A stretch of 43,064 nt of DNA from positions 1-43,064 of the forward strand of contig PWMT01000058.1 in the NCBI GenBank assembly GCA_003558085.1, given 5' to 3'. Positions 18,021 through 34,684 of this stretch are shown here, in pieces. Both the position numbers and the translations under genes were made by a program. Positions within the stretch are counted from its first letter, which is position 1, and every line of letters starts with the position of its first letter. The notes under the pieces are model-generated. The model was given only the letters and a program-made list of their open reading frames with translations. It was not told the DNA's origin and ran no database searches. The DNA is from Methanobacteriaceae archaeon. GTDB taxonomy: Archaea; Methanobacteriota; Methanobacteria; Methanobacteriales; Methanobacteriaceae.

Positions 18021-19760
18021 ATGAAGCATGATCAAATGATGAATGTTGCTAAAAAAAGAGGATTTCTATGGTCTTCATTTGAAATTTACTCCGGAGTAGC
18101 CGGATTTGTAGATTATGGCCCATTAGGAGCTATCCTTAAAAATAATATCATGGATAAATGGAGAAAATATTATGTAGTAAGAGAAGGGTTTTATGAAATT
18201 GAATCCCCTACTATTATGCCTGAAGAAGCATTGAAAGCATCAGGCCATGTAGATCATTTTAATGATCCTATGACTGAATGTAAAGAATGTATGGACGTTT
18301 ATCGAGCAGATCATATTATAGAAGAATTTACAGGAGAGGACGTAGAGGGTTTAGAAAATCAGAAGTTAACTGAAATCATATCCCAGAATAAGATTCGATG
18401 CCCGCGATGTAATGGTCACTTTAATAAGGTCTGGAGTTATAATTTAATGTTTCAAACCTTAATTGGAGCTAAAGGCAAAAAAATAGGTTATATGCGTCCT
18501 GAAACTGCACAAGGAATATTCATACCCTTTAAACGTCTTTTAAGATTCTTCCGTAATAAGTTACCCTTTGGAGTGGTGCAACTTGGTAAAGCCTATCGTA
18601 ATGAGATATCTCCTCGGCAAGGGGTTATAAGGTTACGTGAATTCACGCAGGCTGAAGCAGAAATATTTGTAAACCCCCAAGATAAAAGCCATCCCTACTT
18701 TCCTAAAATTAGAGATGAAAAATTAAACCTGTATCCTGCAGTTAATCAAATGGATAAGAAAGAAGTTTTAACCATATCTGCCCAGGAAGCACTTGGAAAA
18801 AGTTTAGTATCCAGTGAGTTACTGCTCTACCATTTATATCTTGCTCAAAAATTTTTAAAAGAATTAGGCATACCTGATCATGCATTAAGATTCCGCCAGC
18901 ATCTACCCACGGAAATGGCGCATTATGCCATAGATTGTTGGGATGTGGAAGTAAAAACTGATCGCTATGGTTGGATTGAAATTATAGGAATAGCAGATAG
19001 AGCTGATTATGATTTAAAATCCCATAGTGGATACAGTTCTGAGGATTTAAAAGTATTTATAGAATATTCAGAGCCGATTTCAGTGGAAAAGACCCTTATA
19101 AAGGCTAACATGTCTAAGGTTGGACCGGTATTTAAAAACGATGCTCCTAAAATAATTAAAATTTTAGAGGAAGTTGATGCTGCAGAAGTTGAAAAATCTT
19201 TTAATGAGCAGGGATTTTTTGAAATAGAGTTAGAAACTAAACATCGAATCTTACCAGAACATGTGGAATTTGAGAAAGTTCATGAAACTATAAGGGGTGA
19301 GAAAATATTCCCCCATGTGATAGAACCTTCCTTTGGAATCGATCGTATCGTCTATTCTGTATTATTGCATTGTTATAGGGAAGAAGACGAAAAAACTTAT
19401 TTCCAATTCTCCAGAGACATAGCCCCGGTAGAAATAAGTGTTTTTCCACTTTTAAATCAGGATGATCTAAACCATATAGCTCTAGAAATTAAGGACCATC
19501 TAAGAAAATTAGGATTTATTGCAGAATATGATTCTTCAGGAACTATAGGGCGTCGATATGCACGATCAGATGAAATAGGTGTTCCTTTTGCCATAACCGT
19601 CGACCATCAAACCCTGGAAGATGATACCGTTACCCTAAGAAATAGAGATGATTCAAAACAAGTAAGAATACCTATTGCTGATATTGAACAGATTTCAGCT
19701 GATCTAAAAAAATTTAAAATAGAATTTGAAAATTTAAAATCCGCTGATAAGGGATTATAA
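18021..19760 (+). CDS. glyS: Glycine--tRNA ligase (archaeal/eukaryotic type)
   Basis: DYGPLG, ASGHVDHF, RPETAQG, RNEISPR, EPSFGIDR, C-terminal anticodon-binding domain. Confidence 0.97.
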   Translation: MKHDQMMNVAKKRGFLWSSFEIYSGVAGFVDYGPLGAILKNNIMDKWRKYYVVREGFYEIESPTIMPEEALKASGHVDHFNDPMTECKECMDVYRADHIIEEFTGEDVEGLENQKLTEIISQNKIRCPRCNGHFNKVWSYNLMFQTLIGAKGKKIGYMRPETAQGIFIPFKRLLRFFRNKLPFGVVQLGKAYRNEISPRQGVIRLREFTQAEAEIFVNPQDKSHPYFPKIRDEKLNLYPAVNQMDKKEVLTISAQEALGKSLVSSELLLYHLYLAQKFLKELGIPDHALRFRQHLPTEMAHYAIDCWDVEVKTDRYGWIEIIGIADRADYDLKSHSGYSSEDLKVFIEYSEPISVEKTLIKANMSKVGPVFKNDAPKIIKILEEVDAAEVEKSFNEQGFFEIELETKHRILPEHVEFEKVHETIRGEKIFPHVIEPSFGIDRIVYSVLLHCYREEDEKTYFQFSRDIAPVEISVFPLLNQDDLNHIALEIKDHLRKLGFIAEYDSSGTIGRRYARSDEIGVPFAITVDHQTLEDDTVTLRNRDDSKQVRIPIADIEQISADLKKFKIEFENLKSADKGL

Positions 19761-20582
19761 ATTTGTAATATCTATTTTTTCTGATTTTTGGAGATAATGA
19801 TTAAATATATTATTTCCCAAAACCATAGCTTCTTGATCATGAGTTAAAACTAATTTGGAAGGATCATATTCCCCATTCAATAAAAATAATCCTAAAATAA
19901 TGAAATTCTTAGAAAACATCAACGCAAATTCCAGTGAAGAATGAAACTTCCATAATCTCAGTAATCCCTTATGTATATAATTTTTAAGCTCATTTTTTCC
20001 TAACTGTTTTAACAGGACCTGATATATTTCTGGGGTCACTATCATTTCTACGTTACAATCGTTTTTTAATAAAAATTTGATTGCATCTAAATGTCTAGGG
20101 AAAAATATGGGTAGAATTGCTTTAAACTTATCTGAATTAGATATCATTTCTAAATAAGTGGTGAAAGGATTTCCAATGTTTGCTTTGGTAGATTCAATAA
20201 GCTGCGCATCATGGAAAACTTCAATATTCTGTAAAAGTTGATGTGGTAATTCCTTGATTTGATGGGTTTGCCAGAAATCATGACAAGAATTAATGGTATT
20301 CAATTGTTTAAGGAAATCTATTATTTTTAAGGAAAGAATAGTCCCTTTAGAAGTTAAAAAATAATATTCACCATTTTTTTCGATTAAATTTTTTTCGATT
20401 AATTGGTTTATTCCATGCAAAATCGTTGAAGAAGTAATCTGTGTTAGATATCTAATATTTTCCAGTTTCAAGGAGTTATCCTGGAGACTGATCATTATTT
20501 TGGTTCTAACTTTAGAAGCCAATAAAAATTTCACATCAGGGTAATCTTGTTCTAAATAACTTTTATGCCTATCTAATGCCAA
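19755..20582 (-). CDS. Winged-helix/DUF1724 transcriptional regulator (paralog 2)
   Basis: N-terminal wHTH (SKVRTKIM..YFLTSKG), FWQTHQIKELP, LGLFLLNGEYD; RBS AGGTGA favours TTG at 20582. Confidence 0.82.
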   Translation of the reverse strand: MALDRHKSYLEQDYPDVKFLLASKVRTKIMISLQDNSLKLENIRYLTQITSSTILHGINQLIEKNLIEKNGEYYFLTSKGTILSLKIIDFLKQLNTINSCHDFWQTHQIKELPHQLLQNIEVFHDAQLIESTKANIGNPFTTYLEMISNSDKFKAILPIFFPRHLDAIKFLLKNDCNVEMIVTPEIYQVLLKQLGKNELKNYIHKGLLRLWKFHSSLEFALMFSKNFIILGLFLLNGEYDPSKLVLTHDQEAMVLGNNIFNHYLQKSEKIDITNL

Positions 20583-20594
20583 TAAAATCACCTT

Positions 20595-20734
20595 ATCATA
20601 TCATTTTAGCCAACTTTTTTTTTAGACTAAGATTTAATCACCATATCATATCATTTTAGCCAACTTTTTTTTTAGACTAAGATTTAATCACCATATCATA
20701 TCATTTTAGCCAACTTTTTTGGACCAAGATTTAA
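20595..20734. repeat. 50-bp tandem repeat (2 perfect copies + diverged copy in gene end)
   Basis: ATCATATCATTTTAGCCAACTTTTTTTTTAGACTAAGATTTAATCACCAT at 20595 and 20645; a third, diverged copy from 20695 is the 3' end of the upstream regulator gene. Confidence 0.9.
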
Positions 20735-21538
20735 TGATTTTTGATAATAGTAATCGAATAATGATTCTGCCCATTGGATTGCGTTTTTATCCATGCTTAC
20801 CAAATCCCTATTTTGATCATAACTTCCATCATGGTTAAAAAGACCTAAAGACATGAATTTATCAGTTACCGTGAAGACAACCTTTATTTCTCCCTCATAT
20901 AATCTGATTTCCAGATTTTTGTTGCTAATCCCCTCAGATAGAAAATTGAAATCTGAAGATTTAAGCACTTGCTTTACTATTTCTTTAGTTAAAATGAGAA
21001 TTGTGGGAGTATTGCTCTTGATCTTGGCTCCAAAAACTTCCAGCAAATCAGGATGTGAAATGGGTGAAACGGTTCTCACTTCCTTAGATCGTATTAAAAG
21101 CTCTAAAAAATTATTATGAATCTTATAAATATCTAAATGGTTGGCTTTAACCAATTTAGAATCTTCTAATAACCCAAAATTTCCTATAAGATCATCAGGA
21201 ATACCACTAATATCATGATTGAGCCATAATTCTTCAAATTTATTAGTTACTGAAATTAGCTTGAAAAAATCTAAGAGTGAATATAAGTTCAAATAACCCA
21301 AGGAAGATATAAAATATTTACCCCGCCTTTTAATCACCAAATTTTCAGCTAAAAGTAGTTTCATGTTAATGGAAATTGAAGCAAATGTTAAATTATGTTC
21401 TTCTTTTATCTCTTTCATTGACTTAGGATGCTGACTGATGCTAGTTAAAATATTTAAACGGATTTTAGAATTCACCATAAATTTTAACTTATCATGCGCC
21501 AGATCATTAAATTTTAAAATATTTTCTACTGAAAGCAA
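20696..21538 (-). CDS. Winged-helix/DUF1724 transcriptional regulator (paralog 1)
   Basis: SKIRLNIL wHTH, WLNHDISGIP, TVTDKFMSLGLFNHDGSYD..WAESLFDYY; start probably TTG 21538. Confidence 0.85.
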   Translation of the reverse strand: MLSVENILKFNDLAHDKLKFMVNSKIRLNILTSISQHPKSMKEIKEEHNLTFASISINMKLLLAENLVIKRRGKYFISSLGYLNLYSLLDFFKLISVTNKFEELWLNHDISGIPDDLIGNFGLLEDSKLVKANHLDIYKIHNNFLELLIRSKEVRTVSPISHPDLLEVFGAKIKSNTPTILILTKEIVKQVLKSSDFNFLSEGISNKNLEIRLYEGEIKVVFTVTDKFMSLGLFNHDGSYDQNRDLVSMDKNAIQWAESLFDYYYQKSLNLGPKKLAKMI

Positions 21539-21629
21539 AAAAGACACCCCCTTTTTGCATAAATCTATCCATAAACTTACTAAAAATTAATATAATTAAA
21601 GTCATAATTAATATAATTAACGAGGTGAT

Positions 21630-23307: not shown

Positions 23308-24087
23308 TTATCTACGGCCCATTAAACCATCGATAAGCTGGGATATGACTCCTTTTTTATCAGGTTCAATCGGAATATAATCTTCACCAAGCAAGTCTGC
23401 TGCAAGTTTCATTATAGCATTGGTAACTGGAGATTTCGGATTTTGAATAACAATTGGTTCTCCAAATGCTGATGCACGACTGACTTCTGGATCATCAGGT
23501 ATTATGCTGATTACTGGTATTTCTAGTATCGTTTCAATTTCATCAACTGTTAAAAAAGTTTTATCATGTTGTTCCCGATTAATAACTACTCCGATTATAT
23601 TTACTCCTAATTTGGAGGCTATTATTTTGGTTTTTAAAACATCGCTAATAGTGGGAACTTCTGGTGTAGTTACCAGTATAAGTTCATCAGAAGCAGCAAG
23701 AGCAGCTAAAGCATCTTTTTCTAAGCCTGGTGGTGAATCTATTAACAAAATATCTGTATCTTCAATTAAATGTGATAATGTTTCTTCTAAACGTTCTAAT
23801 TTTACATTTCTTAAACCTTCCAGTGAAATACCAGCTGGAACAACTCTCAATCCATTGGGACCTTCATAAATAGCATCCTCAATAGATGCTTCCCCAGATA
23901 GTACTTCGTGAAGTGTAACGGATTTACCTTCCATGCCTAAGATTAGTTCTAGGTTAGCCATAGCAATATCTGCATCCAATACAATGGTTCTTTCACCAAA
24001 ATGAGATAAAGCAACCCCTAAATTAGCAGTGATAGTTGTTTTGCCTACCCCTCCTTTTCCGGAAGCAATGGTAATAACTCGAGTCAA
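23308..24087 (-). CDS. minD: Cell-division ATPase MinD (archaeal)
   Basis: Deviant Walker A SGKGGVGKTT, DADIAMANL, IDSPPG, C-terminal amphipathic helix KKGVISQLIDGLMGRR. Confidence 0.92.
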   Translation of the reverse strand: MTRVITIASGKGGVGKTTITANLGVALSHFGERTIVLDADIAMANLELILGMEGKSVTLHEVLSGEASIEDAIYEGPNGLRVVPAGISLEGLRNVKLERLEETLSHLIEDTDILLIDSPPGLEKDALAALAASDELILVTTPEVPTISDVLKTKIIASKLGVNIIGVVINREQHDKTFLTVDEIETILEIPVISIIPDDPEVSRASAFGEPIVIQNPKSPVTNAIMKLAADLLGEDYIPIEPDKKGVISQLIDGLMGRR

Positions 24088-24172: not shown

Positions 24173-25471
24173 TTATGCAATATCAATGTTTATTTCAAAA
24201 TTATCCACGATTTCAGGATAATCTCTAAAAGTTTTTCGAATTTCCATTTTTGCAATCTCCAGGATATGGTATTTTAAAGTTTTCATATCCTTAGAAGTGC
24301 CAGTAATTTTAGAAAAAAAACTTTTGGATTCATATTCACAGACGATATTTATTTGTCCTTTCAATTCTAGAGAATACTCTAAAAAAACCATGACTTCTGC
24401 TTTTCCAATTTTAGGAATACCTATAATTGATCTTTTAATTTTATTCATTAAGGTTATCTCTATTTTTTCAAGATTCTCTATTTCTATTTTACCGCCTTTA
24501 TATGTTTCCAAGACTTTTTCCACTTCTTCATCTTCAATATCCTTTAAACCATATTTTTGCATAATTTCCGAACGATTCAAATCTTTGGATGATTGTGGTT
24601 TATCTGAAACTAAATCATCTTCAGTAACTTTGGATCCCCCTACCAAAGTATCTTCAATGGATACATCATCCTCAGCTGAAGTTTTTAGTTCATTTTTACT
24701 ATAAGAGGGCTCTTCTAATTCATTTTCTTCCTGTCTTTCTGTTTCGGTTGCATATGCATCATAAAATGTTTTAAAATGCTGAGTTTCACTTTCAGAATTA
24801 TTTTTAGACTCAACCTCATCAGAATCTAAACCACCCTCAACCTCATCAGAATCTAAAGCACTCTCAAAATCTGCAGAAATAGCATCAGATCCGTCTTCAT
24901 CAACATCTAAACTTTTATTATCTACTTTATCATTCACCTGGGGAGTTTCATCTTTATATAAATCTTCTTTTGATGGTGAATCATTAGTTTCAGAATCTTT
25001 TATAGGAACTTTAATTTGATTATTATCCTTTTCTGTTTTAATTTCTAAACCAGAATCATCTTCAACCAGTTCTTTTTCATAATCATCCTTTTCTGTTTTA
25101 GAGGTTTTAATTTCTAAACCAGAATCATCTTCAACCAGTTCTTTTATCGGGGAAATAGGATCAAATTTATAGATTTTGTTAACACCCAACAAATAATCCA
25201 TTTGCGAAATTTTTAAATCAAAAACTTCTACTAGGGTATTATTATTTTTCAAGGACTTCATGGTATGTTCTAGTGCTTCTTTTTTTAAATAATCTTGGAA
25301 GGATGCTGCTACTAGTAAACCATCTTTAAAAAGGATATAACCCTCTTTAGAACCTTCGGTAATCCTAATAAATCCATTGTATTTTTTATCATATAGTTTT
25401 TGGAATAATTTTTCAAAATCAATCTCATCAGCATAGGAAAATTGAGATGGTTTGGTAATGGGTAATTCCAT
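24173..25471 (-). CDS. DUF2226 domain protein with acidic linker and C-terminal alpha/beta domain
   Basis: N-terminal MELP..YNGFIRIT..EGYILFKDG; family motif RSEIMQKYGLKD...EEVEKVL; long D/E-rich linker. Confidence 0.78.
   Translation of the reverse strand: MELPITKPSQFSYADEIDFEKLFQKLYDKKYNGFIRITEGSKEGYILFKDGLLVAASFQDYLKKEALEHTMKSLKNNNTLVEVFDLKISQMDYLLGVNKIYKFDPISPIKELVEDDSGLEIKTSKTEKDDYEKELVEDDSGLEIKTEKDNNQIKVPIKDSETNDSPSKEDLYKDETPQVNDKVDNKSLDVDEDGSDAISADFESALDSDEVEGGLDSDEVESKNNSESETQHFKTFYDAYATETERQEENELEEPSYSKNELKTSAEDDVSIEDTLVGGSKVTEDDLVSDKPQSSKDLNRSEIMQKYGLKDIEDEEVEKVLETYKGGKIEIENLEKIEITLMNKIKRSIIGIPKIGKAEVMVFLEYSLELKGQINIVCEYESKSFFSKITGTSKDMKTLKYHILEIAKMEIRKTFRDYPEIVDNFEINIDIA
24809..24857. 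repeat. In-frame 27-bp-period duplication in DUF2226 linker
   Basis: CTCAACCTCATCAGAATCTAAA twice (LDSDEVE x2). Confidence 0.85.
25035..25145. repeat. In-frame 69-bp-period duplication in DUF2226 linker
   Basis: 42-bp identical copies at 25035 and 25104 (KELVEDDSGLEIKT x2). Confidence 0.88.
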
Positions 25472-25511: not shown

Positions 25512-25871
25512 TTATTCTTTTCTAATCAATTTAATTTCTGGAGGAGTTATAATAATAATATTTTTGCCATTCTTACAAAGTAAAATTGCTTCTACCCCTT
25601 TATCTGCCCGAAGATTCTTGAGCTTTTCCCCTGTATCTTTAAAATCTTCAGGGCTTTCTTTTTCCATGGCACTCATGTCTAGAATAATTGGATTCTTTTC
25701 TTCCAGTAACTGATCGATAGCATAATCAATATCATCAATATTCTGTGCCTTCATCAATATAATTTCGTAAAAAGAGTGTTCAGGAACAATAATATTATCT
25801 TGTTCGCTTTTTTCTTCTTTTTCTTCCTCTAAGCCCAGGTTTTTTTTGACAAAATCCATTACGTCCTTCAT
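25512..25871 (-). CDS. sepF: Cell-division protein SepF (FtsZ membrane anchor)
   Basis: N-terminal amphipathic MDFVKKNLG; core [36 protein letters not shown] matches Methanobacteriales SepF as I recall it. Confidence 0.88.
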
Positions 25872-26926
25872 TTCTGAATCTCCCCTACTTTATTCATAAT
25901 CACATCGATTAATCTTGAACAACCCCCATTTTTAACATCAACAGTAGGAAGGCCATATTTTGATTCAAATTTATTTAGAATATTATCTTCATTAGTATTT
26001 CTTAAGTTTAAAGAAATGCCCACAACTTTAGTTGGTTCAAGAGATTCTATAGCCTTGATTTCTTCATTAATTCCTCTTGGATTACGGAAAGGATGATTAG
26101 GACGATGACATAGAATCGTAGCATCAGGCATACAACCTATTAAAATAGCTGCAGCTAATCCTCTAGGATGAGGATTGCCCATTTCTGTTAAACTCGACTG
26201 GCTTTCCACAAATATAATATCTTTTTCTTTCTCTTCTTCTAAATATTTTATGGAACCCATAATAGATGAAGTAACATCCATTACCGATAAACTGCCTGCC
26301 CTAAAATTTAAATCAACAGGTTTTTCCAACCCCATTTCATCGGTAGATATAACTCCTGCCTCTAATCCTCTTTTTTTAGCTTCTTTGCCTAATAAACGTG
26401 TGGTGGTTCTTTTTCCACATTCTTGTGAAGTGCCTCCAATGTAGATAACAGGAGATTTAGGTTGATAATTTATTTTAGGCAAAATTTCCGTGCATTTAGA
26501 AGGTGCTATGCCAAAAATATTTTTGATTACATCTAAACGAGGGCTTATCTCCATAATAGTAACGTTTTTTTGTCGTGAAAATTGTAATAGGGAAGTATTT
26601 TCTGCTATTGGAAGTGATCTAAAGGAGGTAATTACATTTTTACCCATGTTTATGGCCTCCACCGCATATTTCAATGCAGAGCCTTCAGCACCTATGGGAA
26701 GCATGATAGCCACGCTATTAGCTGAGGTCTCAGCTAATAAATCTGGTAAATTAGAAGACACAGAACAACCACAAAAGATTTTTCCATGCTTTTTAGGGTC
26801 ATCATCAATAAAACCTACAGTTTTTACTCCCTCGAAGTTAGCAAATTTTTCTCCGCCGCCACCGCAACCAATGACAATAAATGGATTAAGTTTTTGAAGT
26901 TCTTCTATAGAAGATACTAGTAGCAA
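25868..26926 (-). CDS. DUF1611 (DgcN-like) protein: Rossmann-like N domain + P-loop domain
   Basis: [55 protein letters not shown] overlap with sepF. Confidence 0.82.
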
Positions 26927-27049
26927 AGAACCACTCCTTCTTTAGTATTTGTTGAGATTAAATAGAAACTTTAATTACTTATTTATTTAATAAATGATTA
27001 AAGCATATATACTTTAGGTAATTAATCTATTTGTTGAGGGAGGCAGATT

Positions 27050-27397
27050 ATGATTGAAAGAATACTTAAAGATTTGGCTAGAATAAACGGAGTGAACGGA
27101 TCCTTGGTAGTAGGAAAAGATGGCTTGATTATTGAAAGTGAAGTACCAACCGATATTGATTCTGAGCTTGTGGCAGCGATGTCATCTGCTGTTTTTGGTA
27201 CTGCTGAAAGATCAGCTGAGGAAATGAAACATGAACCTCTACAACAAGTGATGATAGAAGGAGACAGGGGAAAAACACTAATGATTGATGCTGGTGAGGG
27301 AATTCTAGTGGTGATAGCTGAAATAGAGATAAATCTTGGTCTTATTCGTATAGAGATGAGAAGAAGTTCTGAAAGAGTAAAAGATTTATTAGCTTAA
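27050..27397 (+). CDS. Roadblock/LC7 (MglB-like) protein
   Basis: [40 protein letters not shown] is the classic roadblock pattern. Confidence 0.92.
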
Positions 27398-27444: not shown

Positions 27445-28425
27445 TTGAAAAAGCCCTATGTTATACTTGTGGGTAGTGCTTCAGGTATTGGAAAATCTAC
27501 TATTGCATCTGAATTAGCAAAAGAATTAAATATTAAACACTTGATGGAAACCGATTTCATCCGAGAGGTTGTAAGGGGAATAATAGGGCCAGAATATGCT
27601 CCTGCATTACATAAATCATCTTATGATGCTTATACTACCATTAGAAGAAAATATAGGTTTGAGGATAATAGTGAAAATATAATTAGTGAGGGCTTTGAAG
27701 AACATGCCTCTTTTGTAATTCCTGCTATTGAAACCGTGATTAACCGGGCAGTGGATGATTTTGAAGATGTAGTTATTGAAGGAGTACATTTAGTACCCGG
27801 CTTTATAAATACTAAAAAGTTTAAAAAGAATGCTTCCATTCATTTTTTTGTTTTAACTGCAGATGAAGACCTGCACAAAGAGAGATTTGTAAAACGAGCC
27901 ATGGAGGTCAAACGTGGCGGAAAACATCTAGAATACTTTAAAGAAAATAGAACAATAAATAATCATCTAGTCAATCGTGCTGAGGCCACCAACGTACCGG
28001 TAATAAATAATACTGATATTGAATGTACGGTACGCAGAATGCTATCGATCATAAAAGAAAATTGTAAAGTCCTATTTTTCAAACATTCGGTTGATGATTT
28101 AGAAGAAGTGATTAACATTATTATTAGAAAATACAGTGGCCGTATTGTAGATGTTTCTTATTTTTTACCTGGTTTTTCCGAACCCTTGCGTAGAAAGGTT
28201 AATGTATACGATCCCAAAGACTCTCAAAGATTTATTGATATGCTGCATAAGAACCCTGAACGGAAACAAGATCTGGAACGATTATATAATCTTACTGAGA
28301 ATATACACAGTCACAAAATTTGTGTTCCTGATAAAGAAACTCTAGAAAAAATGAAGAAAGAGTTAAAAGAAAAGGGTTTCCTCTATGAAGGCGACGTGGA
28401 AGATTTAAGAAAAAAAGTTAAATAA
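27445..28425 (+). CDS. 2-phosphoglycerate-kinase-like P-loop kinase fused to C-terminal 3H domain
   Basis: [33 protein letters not shown]-terminal KH...[13 protein letters not shown] of the 3H domain. Confidence 0.8.
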
Positions 28426-29210: not shown

Positions 29211-29777
29211 TTATTCTGGAAGTTCATAGAACTCCTGTGATTCTCCTTCATCATCAACATCTTTCAATTTTAAAGTCCTCTTAACATCCATGCTCAAAGC
29301 ATTACAATCTGCTTTAATAGCCTCTAAATGCATTAAAATCCTTTCTTTTTCTTGATTAATTCTTTTTATATTTTTGTAAGGATAAATAGATTCTTTAAGC
29401 ATATCATATTCTATGGTGGTGTAGGGATATTCATTTAATTGTATGCAGACGTTTTCTAAAACTTCACCCAGGAATTTATTCATTTCCACCTTTACTCGTT
29501 CCCGGATCATTTTGTCCCGATCAAGATGTTGTTTCATCAGACGAACCACTTCTGCCTTAGCAAAAGGCAAATCTTCCTGTTCTTCTTCAGATCCTTCTTC
29601 AGATCCTTCTTCAGATCCTTCTTCAGATCCTTCTTCAGATCCTTCTTCAGATACTTCTTCAGATACTTCTGAAGCAGTCTTCATTTCTTCATTAGTTAAA
29701 TCTTCAGGTAGTTCTTCAATATCTTCACTCTCATCATTATTTATTTTTTGATCTTGCAAATCATCATTATCCAGCAT
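29211..29777 (-). CDS. Histone-fold protein with C-terminal coiled coil and acidic N-terminal tail (coiled-coil histone-like)
   Basis: [45 protein letters not shown] follows the histone fold alpha1-alpha2-alpha3, then a heptad helix; ATG 29777 after GGAGG. Confidence 0.7.
29582..29670. repeat. 12-bp coding minisatellite (SEEG/SEEV)n
   Basis: CTTCTTCAGAT(C/A) repeated about 7 times, encoding [31 protein letters not shown]. Confidence 0.92.
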
Positions 29778-30007
29778 ATAATTGCCTCCATAAAATAATT
29801 CCAATAGATCAGGTAATATAAATCCTATATTCACTAGTTAGAGAATTTACAGATTATAATTAAAATAGCAAAACCTTATCCTGACCCAGTATGCTAGCTT
29901 AAATTATGAATTAGATTCTATATAAATATATGCTAAATTAACACAATTACCCTTAATTTTTTTATAGGTAATGACCCTAGCTTCTATTAAAAAGTATGTA
30001 ATTTCAA

Positions 30008-31886: not shown

Positions 31887-32627
31887 ATGGTTATTACTGG
31901 TTTATTCAGAGACTTAATCGTAGTTATAATAATCATCTCCCTTTCCATTATCATTATTAAATCATTTTCTTTCTTAATTAAAAAACTTGGGAAGAAATGG
32001 GATTTGGATTTAACCTTAGTACAGATTTTACAAGATATTATTAAATATGGTATCAGCATATTGGCTTTTACTATTATTTTAAAAGAGATGGGTATCGATA
32101 TCACCGCCATAGCTGTGAGTCTGGGTATAGTGGGGATAGCGGTGGGCTTCGCCTCTCGGGATACTATTTCTAATTTTATATCCGGAATAATAATTCTCAT
32201 AGATAAAAGTTTTAAAGTAGGAGATACCATAGAAATAAATAATAATAAGGGTAAAGTAACTAAAGTTGGATTTAGGACAACTACTATTACCAATCCTAAT
32301 AATAGTGTTATTACTATCCCCAATTCTTTATTTTCAAAAAATCCATATTCTAATTACACCTACATGGACCGTAGAAGAGTGGATCTAAATGTCACCCTAT
32401 CCTACCAGGTGGACCTGGAAAAATTTTCTGATGAAATTAAAGAGAAAATCTCAACTTTTCCCTGGGTATTAACTGATACTAAACCAGAAATAATGATAAA
32501 AGAACTTTCTGATGTGGGTGTAAAGTTATTAGTCACTGCATGGACTTCTGATTTATGGCAAATAGCCCCTTATCGTTCTTTAATGGCGGAAGAAATCAAA
32601 AAAATCCTAGGAGAGAAAAATGAATAA
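31887..32627 (+). CDS. mscS: Small-conductance mechanosensitive channel, MscS family
   Basis: SLGIVGIAVGFASRDTISNFISG, FKVGDTI, IPNS. Confidence 0.92.
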   Translation: MVITGLFRDLIVVIIIISLSIIIIKSFSFLIKKLGKKWDLDLTLVQILQDIIKYGISILAFTIILKEMGIDITAIAVSLGIVGIAVGFASRDTISNFISGIIILIDKSFKVGDTIEINNNKGKVTKVGFRTTTITNPNNSVITIPNSLFSKNPYSNYTYMDRRRVDLNVTLSYQVDLEKFSDEIKEKISTFPWVLTDTKPEIMIKELSDVGVKLLVTAWTSDLWQIAPYRSLMAEEIKKILGEKNE

Positions 32628-33225
32628 TTCAAAATTAATTTCTTCAATCATAATCTTAATATGTTTAATTTTATCATTTAACATAACAATTGCAGCTTAT
32701 AGTCAATATCAAAATTTAAGAGACACCCAAGCTCGCCTAGAACATTATAAAAGCGCTCCTAGGAATTTATTAGAACCAGAAGTTAGTAATGTTAATTTAC
32801 AATCTGGAGGCGCCACCAATTTAGGGAAAATAATCATACCTCGATTAGATCTGGAAGTCTGGATTAGAACTGATACGGTCAATGCATATGATTCAGTCTA
32901 TCATTATCCTGAAAGTGTTATGCCTGGAATGGATGGTCATTGCGGACTTTTAGGGCATAGGACTAGTTATTCGGGACCTTTCAGAAATATAGGGAATTTA
33001 AGAGTGGGAGATGAAGTTATAATTCAAGACATGGTAGTCTCAAGGGAGTATGTCTACCAAGTGGTGTCTAATGGCGCAGATATCCGCTGGGACTATAAAA
33101 CCAATCCGATCCAATTTGCTCAGGATGGTGAAGCTCGATTAATGTTAATTACATGTTATCCGCCTGGAAGAAAAGATGCAGCATGGATAACACACTGTAG
33201 ATTAGTATCCACTTCTAATATTTAA
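32620..33225 (+). CDS. Sortase (class D/E-like)
   Basis: N-terminal TM anchor, IIIPRL, GHRTSYSGPF, VGDEVII, LMLITC motif. Confidence 0.85.
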   Translation: MNNSKLISSIIILICLILSFNITIAAYSQYQNLRDTQARLEHYKSAPRNLLEPEVSNVNLQSGGATNLGKIIIPRLDLEVWIRTDTVNAYDSVYHYPESVMPGMDGHCGLLGHRTSYSGPFRNIGNLRVGDEVIIQDMVVSREYVYQVVSNGADIRWDYKTNPIQFAQDGEARLMLITCYPPGRKDAAWITHCRLVSTSNI

Positions 33226-33436
33226 TGATAGCATTGATAGTATATAAATCAGAATTATTACTATCCTGCCCTTTAATTAATATATTACCACATTAAATGA
33301 ATTAAATAAATATCATAACCCTATTAAATAATTCAACATATCTTAGCTTAACCAGTAATAAATTAGTTCAGACAATTATGCATAACACATTAAAAAATGA
33401 ATAGTAAAATAAATCTATATAATAAGGAGTTTTAAA

Positions 33437-34684
33437 ATGGATGATTCCAGTTTAAGAAATAAATTAGAACTAGAATTAGCTAATCTGGAAAAAATTGATG
33501 GTGTAGAAGCTTCCTTAGTCGTAAATAATTCAGGAGAAGTATTTTACACTAATCTTAAATCAAAAGAACTATCTCTTTTTGGATCAATGGCCAATATAAT
33601 CAGTAATTCGTCTTTAAAACTACTTAAACATACCCGGCAAGGTGAAGGTGAAAGAATACTCCTGGAATCTTTACAGGGAAAAGCACTATTTTTAAATTTA
33701 AAGAAAGGCCATTTAGTAGTTTTAACTAATGCCAATGCTAATATTGGAGCTGTAATGTTATCTTCTAAAAAAGCAGCCCATAAAATTAATAATATTCCTG
33801 AAATAAAAGCCATGGGAGTAAAAATGATATCTGAGGAAAAAATTACTTCCGCTGCACTTAAGAGAGATGCTGAGGAAAATTTAGCAAAAAGTAATGCGCC
33901 TATTTCTACAATTTCCCTGGAAAAGGAAGAATTTAGTTCATCAACACCCCATAACCGGCAAGAAGAAGCTAGATTAAAATTAGAAAAAGAAATGTTAAAT
34001 AAAAATAAGGAAAAATGGAAAACCACCCAATTAAAGGTAAGACCAGATGACCAGAAAGTAGACTTGAATGAAAATAAGATTGCAGGAAAGCTATTACCGG
34101 ATAGTGAAGTGGAGATTATTGGAGATGTGGAAAAAGCTTCTAAAAAAGAGGTAACTAAAGTCAAGGATAAAGAAGTGACTCGTGATTTACCTATTATTCA
34201 ACCCCCCATCGCATTTCCAGAACTACCTCAAGATGTAGAAGTACCTGATGATTTAAAGGAAAGATGTGATTTAATTATAGATATCTATGAATATATTATG
34301 CGCGCCATGTCTATTGGTGCCAGTAAAATTATGGGGGTAGCACCAGCACGGGGGATGTTGAAAAAATCCTTACCCTACAAGGAGTTACCTCAACTTTTAG
34401 CTGGAGTGGATGTTAAAAATAATTCTGTAATTGAATTTGAAAAAATTAGGGAAAATTTAGATAAATATCCTACAGAAAACCGGTCTGAAAAATTTATTGA
34501 AGATTTAAACCAACTTATTACGGCTATCACTGACAACTATGGTAAAGTAATGGGGTATAACGCTTTTAGGGGTATGATAAGAACGGAATTCGGGCAAATA
34601 TATAATGCCTTTGGCCCGGCTATGGACGAATTAGGCATAATAAATATAATTCACTCCGCATTAAAACCCTTATTAAGTGCTTGA
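33437..34684 (+). CDS. Roadblock/LC7 domain protein with charged linker and C-terminal helical domain
   Basis: Residues ~1-120 (DGVEASLVVNNSGEV..ERILLES..ANIGAV) fit roadblock, followed by a low-complexity linker and a ~150-aa helical domain. Confidence 0.75.
   Translation: MDDSSLRNKLELELANLEKIDGVEASLVVNNSGEVFYTNLKSKELSLFGSMANIISNSSLKLLKHTRQGEGERILLESLQGKALFLNLKKGHLVVLTNANANIGAVMLSSKKAAHKINNIPEIKAMGVKMISEEKITSAALKRDAEENLAKSNAPISTISLEKEEFSSSTPHNRQEEARLKLEKEMLNKNKEKWKTTQLKVRPDDQKVDLNENKIAGKLLPDSEVEIIGDVEKASKKEVTKVKDKEVTRDLPIIQPPIAFPELPQDVEVPDDLKERCDLIIDIYEYIMRAMSIGASKIMGVAPARGMLKKSLPYKELPQLLAGVDVKNNSVIEFEKIRENLDKYPTENRSEKFIEDLNQLITAITDNYGKVMGYNAFRGMIRTEFGQIYNAFGPAMDELGIINIIHSALKPLLSA

Follow-up and report, generated by a model that had tools for sequence, protein, structure and literature searches.

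A DUF1611-fold protein gene forms a stable pair with sepF in Methanobacteria

In archaea of the class Methanobacteria the cell-division gene sepF stands directly downstream of a gene for a protein of the DUF1611 family. We describe this gene pair from a stretch of 43,064 nucleotides (nt) of a Methanobacteriaceae archaeon (contig PWMT01000058.1, assembly GCA_003558085.1), called the window in what follows, where both genes lie on the minus strand and overlap at their stop and start codons. The DUF1611-sepF pair is a stable unit, whereas the genes flanking it are not conserved between genera. The DUF1611 subfamily concerned is class-wide and, in the data searched, restricted to Methanobacteria; the restriction applies to the subfamily, not to DUF1611 overall. 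The explanation that we favour, while holding it tentatively, is that the protein is a lineage-specific enzyme of the DUF1611 fold, that it is expressed together with SepF, and that its substrate resembles an amino acid or peptide and yields a product needed in step with division.

An earlier note on this DNA had assigned the upstream minus-strand open reading frame (ORF) to DUF1611. The assignment is confirmed by two Pfam domains above their cut-offs: PF07755 (161.4 bits, cut-off 25, residues 157-339) and PF17396, or DUF1611_N (40.4 bits, cut-off 22.6, residues 62-129 only). The downstream ORF matches PF04472 (30 bits, cut-off 27) and, over residues 26-118, the SepF of M. smithii (7AL1, E 2.8e-29); its N-terminal segment is conserved in the alignment of orthologues. 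The same note had placed the stop codon of the first gene over the start codon of the second, and this too is right: the plus strand reads ‘tcat’ at the junction, so the overlap is ATGA, in which the TGA of the DUF1611 gene and the ATG of sepF have two bases in common. GGGGAG is placed 8 nt 5′ of that ATG, and GGGGAGAT is found again at the DUF1611-sepF junction in other genera. Because the two genes overlap, no intergenic promoter is possible between them. From its sequence, the DUF1611 gene is predicted to be transcriptionally fused and translationally coupled to sepF. One metatranscriptome run yielded a contig more than 99% identical to positions 26204-26430, within the DUF1611 gene, and a short contig on minD; no contig spans two genes at the locus (one run, small share of words), and a third contig, matching in just two stretches of about 20 nt, was disregarded. 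Such a library can contain DNA, so the match is weak evidence of presence in RNA.

The junction was surveyed in 40 loci of other genomes, from 26 genera and four families. These loci are not independent, since nine and five of them belong to two single genera. Before gaps were counted, the start of four sepF genes was moved back to an upstream ATG, which brings the conserved N-terminal helix into the protein. In all 40 loci, and hence all 26 genera, sepF lies directly 3′ of the DUF1611 gene on the same strand; this identity of order and strand shows that the junction is not due to chance. The gap is at most 5 nt, ATGA overlaps included, in 35 of the 40 loci and 21 of the 26 genera. Wider gaps measure 40 nt in two genera and 281-338 nt in three. 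Outside the pair the gene content changes. Loci of the Methanobacterium, Methanothermobacter and Methanothermus types have genes for a DUF4388-like protein and MinD after sepF; Methanobrevibacter- and Methanosphaera-type loci have a convergent TatD gene after sepF and are missing the upstream Roadblock gene. A Roadblock/LC7 gene adjoins the DUF1611 gene in many, not all, genera.

An apparent DUF1611-SepF fusion in one genus (a 474-aa open frame; aa, amino acids) was rejected, a stop codon separating the two genes in the ORF list. No fused or longer forms of the DUF1611 protein were found, which is weak evidence. In one genus (genome G117, L037:5000-5900) sepF is duplicated in tandem after the DUF1611 gene, both paralogues encoding 128 aa.

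The subfamily is present in nearly every genome of its class. The genome that contains the window has one DUF1611 copy. Full-length orthologues, 60-83% identical, were found in all 121 genomes searched within the order. In the phylum sample, which comprises four families, all of class Methanobacteria, they were found at this identity in 150 of 151 genomes; the one genome without a match is 93% complete and assembled in 320 contigs. When 1.84 billion representatives clustered at 50% identity were searched, one full-length match scored 491 bits, the other high scorers being fragments of the same subfamily. The second full-length representative scored 79 bits and aligned over the C-domain only, with none between 80 and 490 bits; any Methanopyrus orthologue with 50% identity or more would in this search sit hidden in the same representative cluster. 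As far as Methanobacteria are concerned, the phylogenetic profile proposed in the earlier note is positive, with no close subfamily member beyond the class among those representatives. The 16 sequences from Methanobacteria group as one clade (support 1.0) when 69 family members are placed in a tree; the stem of that clade, at 1.14 substitutions per site, is the longest internal branch (median 0.10). Among control genomes PF07755 had no match in M. jannaschii, M. acetivorans or S. acidocaldarius; it matched in Haloferax (distantly), Thermotoga, Synechococcus and Corynebacterium. One record labelled ‘Methanomicrobiales archaeon’ (L054/P0035) carries a Methanobacteria-type DUF1611 protein (71% identity) and a 2-phosphoglycerate kinase (71%); its label looks wrong.

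Across 27 orthologues mean column identity is 74% for the DUF1611 protein versus 55% for the partner SepF, and the former has long invariant motifs, HR..HP.R.P among them. The DUF1611 orthologues thus appear to be under enzyme-like constraint. Both sequence motifs singled out in the earlier note are real. The glycine-rich GCGGGG is invariant or nearly so in the 27 orthologues (G20 and G22-G25 invariant), and all twelve residues of the Walker-A-like motif are invariant there. The latter motif has five residues between its glycines and an Arg between Lys and Thr, whereas the classical Walker A is GxxxxGK[ST]; the motif of canonical DUF1611 proteins, GTDxxxGKxTT, has the same spacing as that of the window protein. 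The ten positions that are invariant or conserved to 90% or more in the 69 family members are all retained in the window protein: D41, G165, G171, K172, T195, G199, E241, Q243, P267 and D330.

An AlphaFold2 model built from the 69-sequence alignment had a pLDDT of 93.5 and a pTM of 0.91. Its first three Foldseek matches in the Protein Data Bank (PDB) were 2G0T (E 3e-20), 7XRJ (E 1.4e-18) and 2OBN (TM 0.69), the range of E-values being 3e-20 to 5e-15. Next came alpha chains of succinyl-CoA synthetase (E about 1e-7 to 1e-5) and, lower, MurD ligases and cyclic diphosphoglycerate synthetase (TM about 0.2). As modelled, the N-domain resembles the CoA-binding domain of the succinyl-CoA synthetase alpha chain, and the C-domain would be a P-loop domain. 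Over its full length the model is matched best by TM0796 (2G0T) and Ava_3511 (2OBN), which are bacterial, have about 20% identity to the window protein and are without a described function. A search of the ESM Atlas returned only the protein's own family.

Against canonical DUF1611 proteins, hhalign aligned residues 51-352 with a probability of 100 and left residues 1-50, with GCGGGGEKF, unaligned; the two groups are thus homologous from residue 51 to the end. The first 50 residues weakly resemble acetyltransferases of the NeuD/PglB type (21 bits, cut-off 160.8). They also weakly resemble the stretch IGAGKLGQKF...GFLDDDPKK of a 471-aa membrane protein (L209:1053-2468, genome G112; E 1.4e-4 within one genome), which we take to be a WbaP-like sugar transferase, recognised by eye without a scan. 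Both resemblances concern a glycine-rich half-Rossmann region ending in DDD.

The one relative with a named activity is DgcN (NCBIfam NF041892; PDB 7XRJ, ‘N-acetyltransferase DgcN-25328’), which, going by these names, we take to be the N-acetyltransferase of a D-glutamate catabolic pathway. The earlier note had called the window protein DgcN-like, and this stands for family and fold and not for close kinship. Both have the two-domain DUF1611 fold, 7XRJ being a match to the model in the structural overlay with DgcN that the note had proposed, and they share residues conserved across the family, among them the P-loop Gly and Lys, T195, E241 and Q243. On the DgcN equivalog model, however, the window protein scores 36.5 bits against a cut-off of 480, and none of the 69 aligned family members comes near that cut-off (best E-value 1.6e-86). 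Sequence similarity to DgcN is limited to the C-domain, residues 1-50 differ, a loop reads STDEMG in place of ATGQTG, and NFRAGSLS and NPHPRG are added. The gene partner differs as well, being sepF, with no racemase or epimerase neighbour. Identity with DgcN was rejected on the score and on this lack of an adjacent racemase or epimerase.

Canonical relatives were collected by a metagenome scan with a 4-sequence alignment, and the best 80 of 550 confirmed hits were kept. In these best 80 of 550 loci the next downstream gene encodes a PLP protein with an alanine-racemase N-domain in 46 and an enolase-type epimerase in 4, the former being much the commoner partner; a PLP enzyme (PALP) is encoded directly upstream in three. 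No SepF-like protein was found among the 644 ORFs of the same loci with an archaeal SepF profile of limited reach. Such racemase and epimerase neighbours tie the DUF1611 family at large to amino-acid stereochemistry. The Methanobacteria subfamily carries sepF where canonical loci carry the racemase gene, and appears from this comparison to have exchanged a racemase-type partner for sepF. The earlier note had remarked that an epimerase partner is absent, and the window bears this out: neither a racemase nor an epimerase is found among its 38 Pfam-scanned ORFs (the window has 55 ORFs of 110 aa or longer, many of them shadow frames). The sole MR_MLE_C match in the same genome, at 38 bits, is in a 427-aa frame on another contig. 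A parallel may be drawn with the bacterial ylm genes around sepF in the dcw cluster, which are presumably enzyme-like, of unclear role and kept beside sepF in walled organisms; we take their protein families to be unrelated to DUF1611.

We suggest that the product of the first gene is a cytoplasmic, two-domain protein of the DUF1611 fold, in a subfamily found only in class Methanobacteria, and that it would be expressed from one transcript with SepF, translation of sepF being coupled to the DUF1611 stop codon. Its chemistry may be acyl-CoA-dependent N-acylation, as the names given to DgcN would have it, or nucleotide-dependent activation at the P-loop. The substrate would be small, amino-acid- or peptide-like and different from that of DgcN. 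Cells would require the product in time with division, most plausibly for the supply, editing or recycling of septal pseudomurein precursors. Chemistry of the family type is most likely because the residues nearly invariant across DUF1611 are retained; because the loops on the substrate side have been remodelled, as have residues 1-50, the substrate or the cofactor probably differs from that of DgcN.

Several observations weigh against this explanation. Tight coupling is not universal, 5 of the 26 genera having a gap of 40-338 nt. Within one class, shared descent may be enough to preserve a gene pair, and related genomes do not count as independent samples. Since the P-loop does not follow GxxxxGK[ST], nucleotide use is no more than possible. 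Among the 38 scanned ORFs of the window there is no Mur-type ligase, MraY-like transferase, ATP-grasp or NTP transferase. We know of no member of the subfamily with known activity, ligand or localisation. DUF1611, SepF and MinD are all absent from the main text and Table 1 of a pangenomic survey of pseudomurein genes (PMC11915815).

A rival explanation is a housekeeping enzyme of Methanobacteria, unrelated to division or wall, whose position before sepF would be an inherited operon layout without shared function. The evidence for a functional link is all positional and comes from one class, no pseudomurein gene is found among the 38 scanned ORFs, and the genomic context of sepF is variable across archaea generally, going by the available part of the archaeal SepF paper (PMC8178401). 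What such an account explains poorly is that the pair is kept in all 26 genera despite rearranged flanks, with a junction of at most 5 nt in 21 of them, a constancy that the neighbouring genes do not achieve. We regard it as unlikely, if by no means negligible.

The protein might instead be no metabolic enzyme at all and act as a nucleotide-dependent regulator or assembly factor on SepF, on FtsZ, or on the products of the surrounding genes (MinD and the Roadblock and DUF4388-like proteins). In favour of this are its P-loop domain and its gene neighbourhood: its expression would be coupled stoichiometrically to that of SepF, and many genera also have MinD, Roadblock/LC7 and a DUF4388-like protein at the locus. 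Genera of the Methanobrevibacter and Methanosphaera kind, however, keep only the DUF1611-sepF pair, so the other neighbours are not obligatory. The catalytic-type residues found family-wide and the many invariant polar motifs resemble a small-molecule site, and the only characterised relative is, by name, an acetyltransferase. We regard a regulator as improbable.

The earlier note had proposed that the DUF1611 protein N-activates glutamate for pseudomurein, and in its strict form this would make it the glutamate-activating step of pseudomurein peptide synthesis at the septum, giving N-phosphoryl-Glu or N-UDP-Glu. In its favour are the occurrence of the subfamily in nearly every genome of the pseudomurein-bearing class and nowhere else in the data searched, the coupling of the gene to sepF, the action of the distant relative DgcN, going by its NCBIfam and PDB names, on the amino group of glutamate, and the presence of a P-loop and a glycine-rich, nucleotide-type loop. 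The proposal is nevertheless not supported: the DgcN test failed (36.5 bits against 480), the window holds no pseudomurein gene among the ORFs scanned, and other enzymes have been proposed. The DUF1611 gene lies outside any pseudomurein cluster, and among the labelled ORFs neighbouring it in 20 loci of about 9 kb no pseudomurein-cluster family was found. No close orthologue occurs beyond Methanobacteria among the representatives, where a Methanopyrus protein could have been hidden as described above.

The accompanying statement that these steps have no assigned enzymes is out of date. Candidates come from pseudomurein clusters: Subedi (2021) proposed Mfer335 or the ATP-grasp protein Mfer760 for the phosphoryl steps and the nucleotidyl transferase Mfer334 for the nucleotidyl step (PMC10117817, available part). 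In the available part of a 2026 paper, PMurB, an NTP transferase encoded beside PMurC, was assayed, and the neighbouring PMurA was hypothesised to phosphorylate Glu (PMC12996149). The pangenomic survey also lists, in the portion available, five more orthologous groups, left unnamed, that are specific to archaea with pseudomurein (PMC11915815). With candidates already named, and DUF1611 missing from the main text and Table 1 of the survey, we consider glutamate activation by the DUF1611 protein scarcely credible.

A more ambitious form of the explanation that we favour would have the DUF1611 enzyme tie the division ring to pseudomurein precursor synthesis, for example by catalysing an unassigned amide-forming step. 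We know of no proposed enzyme for the bond between the amino group of the peptide glutamate and the carboxyl group of N-acetyl-talosaminuronic acid. A nucleotide-binding N-domain and a P-loop domain would be laid out like the first two domains of a Mur ligase, and one-for-one production with SepF would let wall synthesis track the ring. We rate this variant as quite improbable.

The features of the locus are collected in Table 1. The same-strand genes downstream of sepF encode the 432-aa acidic protein, MinD and a PfkB kinase. The 432-aa protein, which stands between SepF and MinD in gene order, is acidic and repetitive over a long central region and conserved in its C-terminal part.

Table 1. 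Features of the DUF1611-sepF locus and its neighbours (positions in the window)
Feature	Position	Strand	Evidence
DUF1611 protein gene, Methanobacteria type, 352 aa, TTG start	25868..26926	-	ORF list and Pfam
Shine-Dalgarno-like AAGGAG, 7 nt 5′ of the DUF1611 TTG start	26934..26939	-	Sequence
GCGGGG, glycine-rich loop (residues 20-25) within residues 1-50, which are subfamily-specific	26852..26869	-	Alignment
DUF1611 C-terminal P-loop domain, PF07755	25910..26458	-	Pfam
Deviant Walker-A-like motif, residues 164-175	26402..26437	-	Alignment
ATGA: overlapping DUF1611 stop codon and sepF start codon	25868..25871	-	Sequence
GGGGAG, Shine-Dalgarno-like for sepF, within the final DUF1611 codons	25880..25885	-	Sequence
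sepF, 119 aa, FtsZ membrane anchor	25512..25871	-	PF04472; 7AL1
432-aa acidic protein, weakly DUF4388-like N-terminus	24173..25471	-	Pfam, 22.8 bits, under the cut-off of 25
Archaeal MinD ATPase	23308..24087	-	TIGR01969, 369 bits
Roadblock/LC7 protein, divergently transcribed	27050..27397	+	PF03259, 73.8 bits
P-loop kinase (2-phosphoglycerate-kinase-like) fused to a 3H domain	27445..28425	+	NF008995, 516 bits; PF02829

Further observations concern the rest of the window and the kinase. On the plus strand (32620-34684) a sortase gene is followed by a gene for a 415-aa protein with an N-terminal Roadblock/LC7 domain; in the available part of the pangenomic survey a sortase is listed among the genes specific to pseudomurein archaea, in cluster C (PMC11915815). 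The minus strand encodes two tandem paralogous regulators of 278 and 283 aa with the FilR1 middle domain (19755-21547) and an acidic protein of 207 aa that carries consecutive SEEG repeats and matches no Pfam family (29211-29834). A true 2-phosphoglycerate kinase of this genome is found elsewhere, its N-terminal half cut by a contig end (C81:8019-8450). That kinase is widespread in Methanobacteria: 105 relatives were found, and all 80 loci kept are from the class.

No description of the DUF1611-sepF pair was found in the literature searched, nor in the available part of the archaeal SepF paper (PMC8178401). The pair gives a known fold family a new and very stable genomic partner. Division of walled archaea is, to our knowledge, little known, FtsZ and SepF being the main characterised parts in Methanobrevibacter, and we know of no factor that links the division ring with pseudomurein synthesis. 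A gene that is near-universal in the class, restricted to it, more conserved than sepF and joined to sepF is a concrete candidate, cheap to test, for a division or wall factor. A shuttle-vector system has been reported for Methanothermobacter (PMC8609365, available part). If the DUF1611 protein is wall-related, it would offer a means of targeting gut and rumen methanogens specifically; if its metabolism is unrelated to the wall, it would represent a new substrate class for the DUF1611 fold.

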